A stretch of 58,159 nucleotides of DNA, counting the filler, from Sluysia triapertura (taxonomy: Eukaryota), in NCBI GenBank assembly GCA_046118255.1. It is 4 parts of 4 records of this genome, joined end to end, with 100 filler letters (N's around TTAATTAATTAA, not from the genome) between each part and the next. Parts side by side here need not be neighbours in the genome. Positions count along the whole stretch, not along the records: positions 21,559 to 35,803 come from JBJNIA010002007.1; positions 35,904 to 47,101 come from JBJNIA010187490.1; 2 more parts are not named here. The stretch is one strand, 5' to 3'. Within the stretch, counting starts at the first letter, position 1. Each line of letters starts with the position of its first letter. The position numbers and the translations under genes were made by a program. Below the pieces are notes generated by a model. It made no database searches, had not been told where the DNA came from, and was given only the letters and a program-made list of their open reading frames with translations. Shown here one piece after another: positions 27,551 to 44,726 of the stretch.

Positions 27551-30500
27551 GAGTACAGATCTACTCGTCACAGGGGTTTCGGTTTCTTTACGTTAAATTC
27601 CATAAATAAATCAAATTAAATAAATCATTCAACAATAAGGAAAGTTTATTAATAACAATGCAATATAATCAATAAAACAGAAGTGGTAGAAGCTAAATAA
27701 TGTACAATTTTTATGAAAGAAATCACACTTTAAAATATCTTTTATACTCGATTTTGATTAATTTAATATTCATTTAGGAAAATTATGTTATTTTAGAAGT
27801 AGTTTGTTACGCTGTTTTTACAGTAATAACTAGTTATATTTGATGGTGATTTTAATTTGATTATTACCTGGGTAATTTTTCATAAGTAATTTTTCCTAAC
27901 AATCATAGAAATTTGATTTATTATCAACCATCATTTTCTTTTACTCTACTCAGTCTATTTTTACTTAAATTACTTCTCACATTAAAATAACAATCAGCAA
28001 TACTGTTAACATACATAAAAATAATGAATTTAATTTCACTTTATATTATTTAATTAATTTTCTATTTTTCACACCAAATTTTCTAATGAAAAATGTTTTA
28101 AAGTTCATATTCTCAAACGAACCATTTTACATATAGATTCCCCTCTTTCATAGCAATCATCTCATATTCCATTCATCACATTTGCATCTCTCTAAGTATA
28201 AAAAATTCAACATTCCATCATTAAAATTTGACTTTGTCGATATTAAGGCTTTCCTTGCAAGAACTTGGTCAAACCATACCTTCATCGAAAGGTCTTTTAA
28301 AACAAATACATACACAATTTCAAATTTAACATAGCATTCCTCATTCAAAAGTTATTCACAAAATTAATTAAGATTTTTAATTAATTAACCTATTTTTAGA
28401 CAACCTTATTTTGTGTTTATAGGTTTTATTAAGGTTCCAAGGCTTTCTAGTAATTTATAAGGCATTCAGGAGGCTGCAGATGTTTTCACCTTCATCTCTC
28501 TGATTCCTTTTCTACTTCTTAATGTTTATTATTACCACATTAAACTTATCTTTATTATTTTGAACAAAGGTTTTATTTCTCAAACATTTTAAAGATATTA
28601 TACACTTTATAATATTACTCAACGATCTTTGATGCTTATCAAGTTTTCCAGAACACTTAAAGGTTAATAGAGTCTTAGATGATCTTAAAATTAACAAGTT
28701 CAAAGATGTTCTAATACCTTCAAAGGTTTTTCAAGTCCTCTTCAAGCCTCCAAAAGGTCTCGACACCTTATATAGCTCTTTAAAACTCTGAGTTATTCTT
28801 CAGCTGCTAACCTTATTATAAATGTTTTTATTTTCATTATTCTTTTTCCAACAATGTTTATTTTTTCCAATCTATCATTTCATATTAACTCTTACTTTAT
28901 TTTATGATTCTGTACATCTCTTACTCATCTCCTAATTCACAGTTGGACAATTCCAACATTATCATCATGAATATTATCTTTAGAATATATAATGAATGCC
29001 GAATCAAATGAATAATCTCTTGATAATAAATTCTCACAGTTTTCCGCATCTATTTTATCAATATCAAATTGATTATACTCGAAATGCTCATTTTCCATTG
29101 CTGTTGACGATAATGTTTCTTTTGAATCATCAGAGGAACTATTTTGTTTCTGACATAGAACTTGTAGGTGGAAAAGTATTCTGAACTCTAGCCGATTTTT
29201 GTGTTAGAAAACTGAATTTAAGTACTGTGAAAACGAATATCTGTAGTCCATTGTTCATTATTTAGTATAATTGAGGGTGTCAGAAAAATAGATTTGTTTT
29301 CTTCAATATCTATCAATGCATCTAAAGTTGGAGCTGCATTCTATTCTATTTTCCATATATGTTTGCAAATTCATTCATGTATTTATCAATAATAGATGCG
29401 GTGGCCAACATCTTCGCATAAAGCATTCATTACATTAAAAATTATTAAATTTGTATTTGAAATTTAAAAATAACGATAAACTAAATGGAATTTCTGTTAA
29501 CACCTTTAACGTTGCTCATACTGTTTTCACACTTTATAATTTTACATTCCTTTTTATACTCAATGTTTGTATTTGGAAATAATAATCAATCTAAATCTAT
29601 GTTCTGATTCTATCCATACAAATAATGATAATGAAATTTCCAACATGGTTCATACAAAAAGGAAATAACACAGTCTTCTATTGGTTTATCACAAGATTCA
29701 AATAAAAGTAAATCTTTAGAATTTTGTACTCCAAACATGAAGATTTATATAATCAAATTAATGAAGTCATTTCAACTTTAATTTATGAAAATAATAAAAC
29801 TGATAACCGGTATAAGTAGAAAATGTCACGACGAAGAAATGGGTATTATTATGAATACGTATGAAAAGGATATTTTGTCTAACAATCAAACTTAAGTGAT
29901 ACAATAGAGACGCAATTTAATGACCAAAATACTCCATCTTAATTAACTAATAAGTGTCCATACATTATACCTATTCTGATTACGATGCTTTATTTGAAGA
30001 GTCTCCCAAACGATTCAAATATAATATAGATGATATGGTGGAAATAAATAAACAAGAACAAGGCGAAGCTTATAAGCAGTCATTCGATATAAATTAATTT
30101 AAGCAACAAGAGAAGAAAAAGAAGTAAACGTTAAAATATGTGAAAAAAATTTATGTATTTCTTATTTGTAATTTTTATTAATTATTTTTATCATTATGGT
30201 ATGCAACCATTATAAATTTTAATTATTTAAACTGTCAAATATGACATTTTTAAATACTGTTATTGTTGATTAAAATTAACTTATGCCTGTCATCATCTCA
30301 CAGCTTTTTATTTGTTTACGTGAAAATTTGCATGGTCACAGGCAATTGCTTTAATTGGCCAAAAAAATTTAATAAGGTACAATATGTATTCAATAAGTAT
30401 TCAATAGGATTACTCAAGTAAAAACTTACTTCACAATTACAATTTGAGGTTTGAAAATTTTATTTATTCGGCCAGAAAAAAATCTTATCATAGTACAATT

Positions 30501-31508
30501 GACAGAAGTTTAACCACATCTTTAAACTAACCATTTGATGATGTATTTATAGATTTTGGTTCTAAAGATCTTCATACAATTGTTTCACTACTTCATACAT
30601 CCTATGTAAAAATGTGTTAGAAGTCATAAAGCTGATGCAAGTAATGTGGATGATTTATATTATGATGTTACAAATAAAATTGTTGAAGAAGTTATGAAAA
30701 TTAGAATTAAAAACTTAAATGATATTCATTTAAAATATCTTCCTATATCTCGCGGACTTCATTATAAAGATAGACTTTAAATTCTTAGATAATGTTTTAT
30801 TAATGAAAATTATAGAAATAAAAAATCCTGTATCAAAAACTCAGAAATTAAAAAGTATGTAAATTTAAAAATCGATGCATTAAAGAAAAAGTCTAAAGAT
30901 AAAACCATTACAACATTCGATTTATTCTTACGAGTATTAGTGGTATGTCTTGAAATTATTATGTCAAAATTATAGATGATCAGAAACATTATTAATATCG
31001 AAGAAGATATTAAGGATACTATTTCTTCATCAACCTTCCAAAAATTTTCAAGTAATGTTGCTCATGTACCAATATTCTTATCAACAAAATGTTTGCATTT
31101 GATTAATTATATAATGATCGCAATTCCAAACGTAAACTACGAACGCTTAAGTAATTTAATCGACACAAGATAACGTCTAATTATCTCGATTCTATTTAAT
31201 ACAACGACTTCTAAAATAACATTTCTTAAATAATTCTTGCATTCAATTCATAAAAAAGGTATATTATTTATTATGTCAAATACGATATTTTAATTTTTAT
31301 CTTGTCTCTTTTTTAGTTGATATTTATTTTTATGCGAATTCCACCAGAGTCTTGCCTACAAGATGTTCATTGATGTTCCAATATTTCATAAAATTATATT
31401 AAACAATTTTTTATCGTGTAATCAATTAATATATTTCGAATAAATGTACTTTAGATTATTTTTGTTCTTTAGTTTATGATAAATTTAGTTTGAATATTAG
31501 AATCCATA

Positions 31509-42142: not shown

Positions 42143-42352
42143 TATGTATTTAATATTAGTTAACGAATCGCCTATGTATTTAACATTAGTTATCGAACTA
42201 CCTATGTATTTCATGTTAGTTAACGAATTACTTATGTATTTAATATTAGTTAATGAACTACCTATGTATTTCATATTAGTTAACGAACTGCCTATGTACT
42301 TAACATTAGTTAACAAATTGTCTACGTATTTAACATTAGTTAATGATCTGAT
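42143..42352 (+). repeat. Minisatellite, 7 x 30 bp (consensus TATGTATTTAACATTAGTTAACGAACTACC)
   Basis: Units start at 42143, 42173, 42203, 42233, 42263, 42293 and 42323, head to tail with no spacers. Confidence 0.95.
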
Positions 42353-44726
42353 TATTATGATACAGTATCAGCACTCTGATAAATTATCACGATATAAATT
42401 GTTAATAAGTAAGTTACTAGACGAGGAAAATTTAGAGTTGATGGTCGATAGCATTTTCAATATTAGAACTACTTACGTGAGTTTTCATTCTTTATATTCA
42501 CTAGTTTTTACTTTAGTCTATCAAAATACCAAATGGATTCGCGAAGTACAACTAAGTGTGGTGTACAATAATTTAGCAATTACAATTATTAATATTAAGT
42601 CCTGTGCCATATTATTGAATTAAAAAAATTTAAAAGGCTTATGCATTATTTTATTGGACAAAAACCAGTTCAAATACTAGTTATATTATTATCACAATCG
42701 CGATTTTTTGTCAGAGTTGATATTTGTATGTTAATATTAATACCATATAAAAATTATTATTTCATTTCTAAAAATTTATTAAATTCGAAAAATTAAGTAT
42801 CATTTATCGAGGGAAATTCATCAGCTCAACAATACATATTTATTTGTTTATTCTTATTAGGTTTTGGGTTTATTAAATAAACCGTAAAATTATGATTTCG
42901 TTAACATCAAGTAATAGTGTCAAATCTTAGCCTAAAATTCACATTTTAAATTAACTTTAGTTTTAATTCATACTACTCCTTTTATTTGGTTTTTTTGTAA
43001 AAAAATTTGTTAAAAATATTAATTTGTTACAGTGTTCATAGTATATAATGATTACAATCCAATTATGGAGCACCACTGCATGAGATCCTCACACTAAATT
43101 TATATAAATTTAATTTTTCGAATAGCGACAAACTCACCTACTAGGCTATTTAAGTTTAAACTATGGGTTTAAATAAAAATCACAGTTAGAATTCTAATAA
43201 AATTAAATGACGCTAATTTTATAGTATGGAAGCATATGCAATTTTAAAAATAAAATAATTAGTAACTTTACTTGTTAATTAATTTTATTTGTAAAATTAT
43301 GTTATATTTGTAAAGTCATGTTATGTTATATTTAACTAATTTCAACCATAATTCTGCAAGATACAGGATTGTAACTGACGGAGGCAATTTTGTCAACAAA
43401 TTTATAAATATTTTTAGAGGAAACTTTTAACTGACCAAAAATATTGAGATAGTTATTCAGGTTTCCTTTATTAAATCATACACGTATTTTTTTACAAAAA
43501 TTATGCTTAAAAATTTTTATCTTACACTTATTTTTTAGTTTGAAATTTTGTTTAAATAAACTTTGGATATTTTATTTTAATAAATGTTTGGTGATAAAAC
43601 CTTAGTCGTTAAATTATCTTTGATTTGTTTGCAGCCAATTACCAACACAGTGTTAATTTCATTTCTAAAAATGTTAGGTCTATTTAAAGTTAATATAAAA
43701 ATACTTTAAACCTTAAAATTAATAGAAAAACTTAAATTTTTAAAACTTTATATTAATAATCATGTAATGAAAATATAAATAGACAAATGTATTTTAAAAC
43801 ATTCCGATGAAATATTTTGCTTTGCTAGTAACAAAAGCCCGAAGCTGCTTAAAGCTCAAGTATTTGAACAAGCTTGCTTTACAATTTATTTGAATAATTT
43901 ATTATTGCTAATAAATTTATTATATTACAATTTATTACATAACTACTTTTATGAAATTACTTTATTATTTATAAAAACTACAATGTGCTGGAATCAGATT
44001 GTTGTACCCAACGCTGCCTACTTAAATCATTTTTATTAACAGTCCTACTGTTTATTCATGAAAAATATTACTGTAGTGATTTATAAAAACTTTATATGAA
44101 TGTGTATAAGATGTACATAACATTCGTACACTAAGGTTAATTTAGTTGTATATTTGAACATTCATTTAAATGTTAATTGCATATTTTGTGATTGTGTGCA
44201 TGCACTGTCACAACTTATAAAATTCGCAATGAAATTAACATACTGATTATAAAATATCAGCACCATTGCAGAAAACTTTTTCAGTAATTAATATATACAC
44301 ACATTCATATTTATAATTATAGAATTTAGCAAATTTTTTTTCAGGCTGCATGTTTTCAGAACACAATGAACATTATGAGATTAGCTGTCTAGACAAATTT
44401 CTCTGTACATAAACAAACCTGGTTTCCTTTTATTTTCAATCGACTGTTTGTGTAATTACCCTGAAACTTCAACTCATAAATCTACTTTCAAAAAAAAACA
44501 AACCGCATCATAAAAAAATAAACCGTAATATAAATATATTGATCTGTTATAAATATATTGATCTGTAAAATCATATAATTCTAATATCTAACCACTATTA
44601 TATTTCATATATATAAACCTAATCTACAGATTAAATCAACCAGGCAAGAGTCAAATTTATATTCATTCCATACAAGGTAAACACTAAAGATTTATAATAA
44701 TTTGTAAGCCCAATTAATATCACAAG

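Follow-up and report, generated by a model that had tools for sequence, protein, structure and literature searches.

A dispersed, hairpin-bearing repeat family with varied cargo in Sluysia triapertura, tentatively read as the long terminal repeat of Gypsy-like derivatives

A stretch of 58,159 nucleotides from Sluysia triapertura (GenBank assembly GCA_046118255.1), hereafter the window, contains a repeat family that is old and dispersed and possesses a fixed start and, in three copies, a shared architecture made of a C/A-rich leader and a hairpin cluster. The family is smaller than described in an earlier note on this DNA, since the architecture with differing open reading frames (ORFs) behind it holds for these three copies only. 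Most likely, the 1.1-kb unit behaves like a non-autonomous long terminal repeat (LTR) derivative with captured cargo, its class being unproven. The more specific reading, in which it corresponds to the LTR of decayed, diverse, cargo-carrying Gypsy-like derivatives, is tentatively preferred, even if it falls somewhat short of probable. The three copies (group I), together with a half cassette, are located as follows:

18360 to 19511, minus strand: unit copy 1, 1152 bp, with TG start motif, C/A leader, four hairpins and CA end; TGGT begins at 18358
31509 to 32612, plus strand: unit copy 2, 1104 bp, with motif, leader, four hairpins and CA end; TGGT begins at 32614
39304 to 40735, plus strand: unit copy 3, with a decayed start, a longer leader, hairpins HP0a/b and HP1 (at 40588), cut off inside HP2
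41200 to 41492, plus strand: half cassette (HP1 and HP2), 76% like copy 1; TGGT begins at 41493

The start is defined by the motif TGYRGTGGCY, which occurs exactly at 13191, 19511 and 23985 on the minus strand and at 29397 and 31509 on the plus strand, i.e., at all five sites named in the earlier note. These five matches compare with 0.10 expected and were reached in none of 100 shuffles, for a pattern fitted after the fact. The longer form of the motif, ending in ..AA, is found exactly nowhere, four of the five sites carrying it with one mismatch and 31509 not carrying it. The degenerate start suspected near 39305 is that of copy 3, which aligns with 31509 from the first CCAACC in 40 of 49 columns. 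None of the 15 pairs of starts aligns in the 600 nt before the motif, so that homology does not continue upstream of the boundary, a point raised by the earlier note. A 13-nt match upstream of 31509 and 39304 was discarded, the region scoring equally well in 142 of 300 shuffles.

Within group I, the leaders of 31509 and 39304 align with a z score of 40.7 (68-80% in BLASTN blocks), and copies 19511 and 31509 with a z of 8.2, in 759 of 1331 columns under lenient scoring. A strong and long C/A skew characterizes three of the six copies (19511, 31509 and 39304), whereas it extends over 200 nt only at 13191 and is weak (-0.2) at 29397; the leader previously attributed to most copies is thus restricted to the first three. 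This leader of 550-900 nt is unstructured (fold z within about 1 of zero) and gave no match in a metagenome scan. Its interpretation as a mitochondrial or long interspersed nuclear element (LINE) coding relic was rejected, since it has no open frame and aligns with no other skewed stretch except a piece at 55.7 kb.

Four hairpins of 55-80 nt each, packed into about 450 nt, make up the cluster; the arms of the first two (HP0a and HP0b) are rich in AAT/ATT, and HP1 and HP2 follow. The earlier note had described a single cassette and had missed the second one at 41200-41492. In copies 1 and 2 the following hairpins were delimited:

18777 to 18842, minus strand: HP0a of copy 1; the opposite, G/U-rich strand folds much better (-28.4 against -13.4 kcal/mol)
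18528 to 18603, minus strand: HP1 of copy 1, stem of about 31 bp, z -5.4
18421 to 18483, minus strand: HP2 of copy 1
32080 to 32130, plus strand: HP0a of copy 2
32236 to 32297, plus strand: HP0b of copy 2
32345 to 32415, plus strand: HP1 of copy 2, z -5.5
32457 to 32531, plus strand: HP2 of copy 2

Compared with 30 shuffles, the whole cluster folds far better in copies 1 and 2 (z scores of -8.4 and -6.5), which is not the case in copy 3 (z -2.0) or in the half cassette (z 0.0). Two-sided changes keep the pairing in 7 of 17 HP1 pairs and 5 of 13 HP2 pairs while the loops vary, two of the HP2 changes stemming, by eye, from a symmetric indel. Strand preference is mixed: the C/A strand is slightly favoured by HP1, and the opposite strand gives the better fold for HP2 in copies 1 and 2 and for HP0a in copy 1. 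The hairpin cassette formerly assigned to three copies is retrieved at 18600 and 32345, with the HP1 scores listed above, but not at 30285, where 12 of 200 shuffles fold as well (z -1.8) and where a model derived from the other four HP1 copies finds nothing at E<=5. Comparison of the 30285 region with the 31509 cassette is equalled by 74 of 300 shuffles, and with the 19511 cassette by only 3 of 300. Rfam yields sub-threshold matches only, without any family at the gathering score for the hairpins, and no hammerhead ribozyme was detected in the repeat by Rfam-type searches. HP1-like words at 23245, in what may be host coding DNA, were set aside as they do not fold (z +2.1).

On the 3' side, the first TGG behind HP2 is part of a TGGT in all three HP2-bearing cassettes, at a distance of 63-83 nt, and in both complete copies a CA occurs one base before this TGGT, which gives TG...CA units of the lengths indicated above. 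The 3' end of the unit is placed from this CA-TGGT pattern only, a pattern noticed after the fact, with a background per window of 1.3% (9% for TGGT).

All the ORFs are oriented from the motif towards the cargo, which differs from copy to copy:

17348 to 18085, minus strand: open ORF of 245 aa behind copy 1, no homologue found
16663 to 17220, minus strand: second open frame, 185 aa from stop to stop, no homologue found and no atlas match
32688 to 34800, plus strand: relic behind copy 2, with a 120-bp two-unit acidic repeat and then one decayed frame; repeated to about 34780 in the sequencing run used below
40745 to 40977, plus strand: acidic 30-bp repeat and following stretch in copy 3, of the same ORF family as 32830-33240
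40978 to 41160, plus strand: fragment of a mitogen-activated protein kinase (MAPK), continuing the reading frame of the element's ORF and lacking the catalytic loop (Pfam Pkinase 9e-6, PDB MAPK 8e-11)
41470 to 41936, plus strand: frameshifted ORF relic, possibly a coiled coil, with weak matches only
42143 to 42343, strand not assigned: tandem array of 6.7 copies of a 30-bp unit

The acidic-repeat ORF is common to copies 2 and 3. In copy 3, an intronless MAPK piece, missed in the earlier note, is fused in frame to this own ORF of the element, in the order unit, own ORF, MAPK piece, half cassette, TGGT and another relic. Because the MAPK fusion is followed by a half cassette resembling copy 1, copy 3 is regarded as a chimera in which two subfamilies enclose a piece of a host gene. 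The 245-aa ORF matched none of 203 candidates and nothing in the atlas or the PDB, and its AlphaFold model (predicted local distance difference test score of 34.8) was not used; the 611-aa frame of copy 2 (32968-34800, stops read as X) has no match among 1.84 billion representatives. The acidic frame ends, and homology resumes in frame +1, at nearly the same position of the two acidic-repeat ORFs (32960-32975 and 40880-40895), which results either from decay or from a shared frameshift. The variation within the 30-bp array at 42143-42343 looks like that of a coding sequence on the minus strand (a 10-aa repeat), facing the ORFs of the element.

The repetition of the unit was estimated from the contigs of one public run (X1) that contains this DNA, no RNA run being listed with it; only positions 21700-35800 were covered, with a likeness threshold of 80%. 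Since several of the contigs are identical to the window, the run is probably the source of this DNA and, therefore, does not provide independent support. Summed depth differs from copy number, and the hairpin bin is in part omitted as repeat. Exact single-copy pieces have depths of 13.5-19.9, and the unit is deepest in its leader, the summed depth reaching 10889 at 31591-32061, 1600-1900 at 32062-33474, 630-940 up to 34887 and 52 beyond. Read from depth, the leader would occur in hundreds of copies, the cassette and the cargo in tens to about a hundred.

Among the explanations offered in the earlier note, that of very long LTRs of a giant Gypsy-like element gains most, through the TG...CA ends, the TGGT and a Gypsy-like start, except that the unit measures 1.1 kb only and that nothing giant or autonomous accompanies it; a new cargo-shuffling non-autonomous family, also proposed, is compatible with the LTR reading. 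Three starts fit TGTNR, published for Gypsy integrase ends and shared by Ginger ends (PMC2836005), and TGTGGYG, listed as the CsRN1 5' motif in Table 3 of PMC3601003, is exact at two of the six starts and one base off at three. According to this scenario, accessory ORFs and captured gene pieces would have taken the place of the internal parts of a Gypsy-like family, transcription would start inside the unit, an integrase supplied in trans would recognise the TG...CA ends, and TGGT would be what is left of a tRNA primer-binding site. By switching templates, reverse transcription would swap the cargo and yield chimeras such as copy 3, and the hairpins may act at the RNA level, in packaging, in dimerisation or as small-RNA precursors. 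The movement steps that we infer here (integrase ends, tRNA priming and template switching) fit the TG...CA ends, the TGG behind the end, the one-way ORFs and the chimera. In this respect, copy 3 matches the form of LTR-mediated capture of host genes reported as retrocopies in animals (Tan et al. 2016, PMC5131818, in the sections used here), with a host gene piece in sense and in frame within a discontinuous element.

Several observations weigh against the LTR reading. TGTGGYG alone is present six times in the window, and the DNA upstream of 31509 is itself repeated, at 15-35 times the single-copy depth. The main fall in depth, from 10889 to 1910, is situated within the unit, near 32060, and the values on both sides of the presumed end show none (1910, 1624 and 1805 across 32062-33474); the lack of a drop at 32612 counts against a classic LTR, even though the hairpin bin is incomplete. 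Two contigs connect 32532 to 32701 without a CA-TGGT boundary, which copy 3 likewise omits, and the sequence after TGGT differs between copies, with nothing common behind it. No gag, protease, reverse transcriptase (RT), RNase H or integrase occurs in the frames scanned, an autonomous partner possibly sitting elsewhere in the genome. Neither a partner LTR nor a solo form with a target-site duplication (TSD) accompanies the three copies, which are decayed and truncated and lie in pieces of 11-21 kb. In line with the earlier note, no RT, integrase, paired inward repeats or supported TSD was found for the element in the frames scanned or in the window, whose pieces are short; the TSD search yields scattered 4-7-nt matches after CA, none of them at a boundary supported otherwise. 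A polypurine tract, expected only at 3' LTRs, is absent, the 20 nt before each of the six starts containing 9-14 purines and 1-3 G. Finally, CsRN1-clade LTRs are 146-381 bp long in the rows given in PMC2582038.

The comparison with known systems is accordingly of partial likenesses. The CsRN1 clade (CsRn1, PwRn1, AgCR) shares the TGTGGYG start and the TGG after the CA end, and the ends of the unit resemble, imperfectly, the 3' motif MSYYAMA (PMC3601003, from its table). It differs by its shorter LTRs, by the pol, and by the CHCC Gag and the 4-bp TSD, which mark the clade together with a tRNA-Trp primer site (PMC2582038), the CHCC Gag and the 4-bp TSD being seen nowhere in the window, and the hairpin cluster is unmentioned in those portions of the clade description on which we draw (PMC2582038). 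The unit is filed neither as Gypsy nor as CsRN1 because these coding features were tested and not found. The giant Gypsy element Burro of planarians and the large retrotransposon derivatives (LARDs), as summarized in part of PMC6431247, have in common with it accessory ORFs, tandem repeats, coiled-coil-like parts and non-autonomous DNA between LTRs, but neither a giant polyprotein nor a Burro domain occurs here and the host is not shown to be a planarian. A head-to-tail arrangement of units, with structured RNA motifs placed between ORFs of various kinds, is a likeness to terminons, Penelope-like elements and retrozymes (same source), from which the present family differs in that no hammerhead ribozyme, RT or telomeric repeats are seen.

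If the LTR reading is true, the unit adds to the known cases in which LTR elements have captured genes, here in an animal that has not been studied, and the conserved group of hairpins in its LTR is unusual. Processing of these hairpins would make the unit a transposon-borne small-RNA cluster present in many copies; if neither holds, the unit is one more unclassified old repeat family. It is distinctly unlikely, though conceivable, that an invertebrate retroelement lineage is involved, whose LTR would carry a conserved four-hairpin small-RNA cluster in hundreds of copies and which, having lost its enzymes, would shuttle orphan ORFs and kinase pieces between subfamilies and nest with Polintons. 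No published description of such a unit was found, in a weak search that left most subscription papers and Repbase outside.

The remaining starts form a second group, listed here with an ORF relic and a linker that adjoin the subject:

29397 to 29574, plus strand: group II start, motif plus about 170 nt common to 13191 and 55.7 kb
12929 to 13191, minus strand: group II start, cutting off a relic of a protein-primed DNA polymerase (pPolB)
23892 to 23985, minus strand: short group II fragment adjoining a PIP4K-like exon and only weakly linked past the motif (13 of 300 shuffles)
55636 to 55798, minus strand: group II piece without motif
30613 to 31173, plus strand: relic of an ORF located between the motifs at 29397 and 31509, with moderate repetition in the run
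35804 to 35903, no strand: artificial N linker within 29397-42623

Group II thus consists of 13191, 29397, the motif-less 55798-55636 and perhaps 23985, which have 100-260 nt in common and align with each other (z 4.2-11.4); the likeness between groups I and II is slight past the first 50-90 nt. The piece at 55.6-55.9 kb, designated as a leader piece (55620-55900) in the earlier note, agrees with 29411-29574 in 112 of 167 columns and also matches 13191, but not the three main leaders, and the motif is missing from it. It is cut by a C-terminal remnant of a hAT transposase (Pfam 2e-7) at 55330-55500. The motif at 29397 lies within an exact single-copy contig that stops at 29449, 52 nt further on, in a bin of depth 5335, which is counted in favour of the LTR reading; site 29527 has a depth of only 28.5, which makes the peak at 29397 narrow. 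The relic at 30400-31350 has a depth of 200-570.

The window consists of four pieces separated by 100-nt N linkers with a central stop-codon word (21459-21558, 35804-35903 and 47102-47201), identical to one another. As the piece lengths are in descending order (21.5, 14.2, 11.2 and 11.0 kb), we take the pieces to be separate contigs, probably unlinked to one another. The single span 29397-42623 delimited by the earlier note crosses the second linker and is, therefore, probably not one locus.

The unit could instead be the long terminal inverted repeat (TIR) of a cut-and-paste DNA element, either Ginger-like or a Pack-TIR of the Mutator-like (MULE) or Foldback-like type, picking up cargo at the DNA level, each copy being one arm. 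Unlikely as it is, this explanation accounts for the internal sequence present behind every copy, none being solo, and agrees with the greatest depth of the outer part of the unit and with the TGTNR shared with Ginger ends (PMC2836005). Moreover, an 84-bp piece of a pPolB relic (13541-13624) is repeated 900 nt away with 96% identity (12644-12727), inside the 13191 element, and looks like gap-fill capture, gene-piece capture being a trait of Pack-TIR elements (PMC8277862, in part); coding-like sequence of no assigned family follows it. However, no two copies face inward, and behind no copy does an inverted motif occur in the piece that contains this copy, the pieces being short; the unit is also far longer than the Ginger TIRs, given as 40-270 bp in PMC2836005; the only transposases are unrelated Tc1 and hAT relics.

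A Maverick or endogenous DNA virus, another option of the earlier note, is weakened by ends that do not fit and by the position of two polymerase relics:

36016 to 37633, minus strand: Polinton-type pPolB relic with stops and frameshifts, outside the unit and pointing away from copy 3
13287 to 13753, minus strand: second pPolB relic, 67% like the first

Their best matches carry PF03175 and PF02945. It is fairly improbable that the unit is an arm (TIR and cargo region) or a repeated promoter cassette of a Maverick/Polinton-like endogenous virus. The relics, with their endonuclease VII-type relatives, adjoin two of the six starts, kb-scale repeats and cargo are common to both systems, vertebrate Maverick TIRs reach 1,447 bp (PMC8097293, as far as cited), and nematode Mavericks are described, in part of 10.1101/2022.07.12.499685, with variable cargo including a kinase family by the left TIR. 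Both relics lie, however, upstream of the motif and thus outside the unit, which starts with TGYRGTGG and not with (AGT)2, (AG)3 or (AC)3A, the motifs listed for vertebrates (PMC8097293). No match to Maverick integrase, ATPase, protease or capsid was obtained in the window frames, with a low sensitivity on decayed frames, since Pfam also missed the pPolB relic; in six loci with a related pPolB, no ORF other than that of pPolB itself had a match in the window, a weak test given the short loci. No pPolB was confirmed in the viral contigs scanned. A scan of viral contigs with two patterns gave 4 + 4 loci, attributed to chance because all have a GC content of 42-62% and lack a BLASTN match to the window, whose GC content is about 25%.

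The hairpins also raise the question of an amplified microRNA-like cluster, a transcription unit in which the motif would be a promoter or a 3' end and the ORFs incidental. The dense, strongly folding cluster and the two-sided changes with free loops speak for it, but it lacks an Rfam family and a uniform strand preference, some of the two-sided changes are alignment shifts, and inverted-repeat conversion in DNA yields the same pattern; it is very unlikely as the sole explanation, and may hold on top of the LTR reading. Equally doubtful is a patchwork of one three-copy family and nested unrelated repeats with a common short motif, which the failure of group II to align with the main leaders beyond about 90 nt, the hairpin not found at 30285 and the many unrelated insertions nearby favour, but which is contradicted by the motif excess and the mutual alignment of group II, and leaves the three-copy family unexplained.

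Besides these elements, the window harbours various repeats and genes, the names Tc1, SINE, LINE and MITE (miniature inverted-repeat transposable element) resting on Pfam matches where cited and otherwise on the usual patterns of such elements. A C/T-rich repeat of about 1 kb (27905-28930) is by far the most abundant sequence in 21700-35800, with a summed depth of 0.5-1.45 million against 17 for single-copy DNA; it has no Pfam or PDB match and a faint likeness, by eye, to a LINE RT. Further high-depth repeats occur at 24526-25938, 26410-27351 and 35359-35800, with depths of 102612 (24997-25467) and 215571 (35359-35800), and 35490-35584 matches 46991-47083 at 84%. Between a pPolB relic and copy 3, a short Tc1-type element (38359-38879) is flanked by TA, has inverted ends and retains a DDE_3 remnant; its TIR resembles the start motif but has TA-CAG ends and was rejected as a relative, being a separate insertion. 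A tRNA-related short repeat, presumably a short interspersed nuclear element (SINE), is present in six copies (6245-6324, 9271-9402, 9488-9638, 9830-9919, 14845-14911 and 21354-21458). Among the genes, which indicate an animal host, an aldolase with introns of 36 and 40 nt, whose exon is 71-77% like 13 full-length proteins, one cluster including a millipede protein, is accompanied by PIP4K-like and PHD-finger exons, the PHD-finger pieces at 19724-21104 (minus strand) ending about 210 nt before the 19511 start and probably belonging to a host gene.

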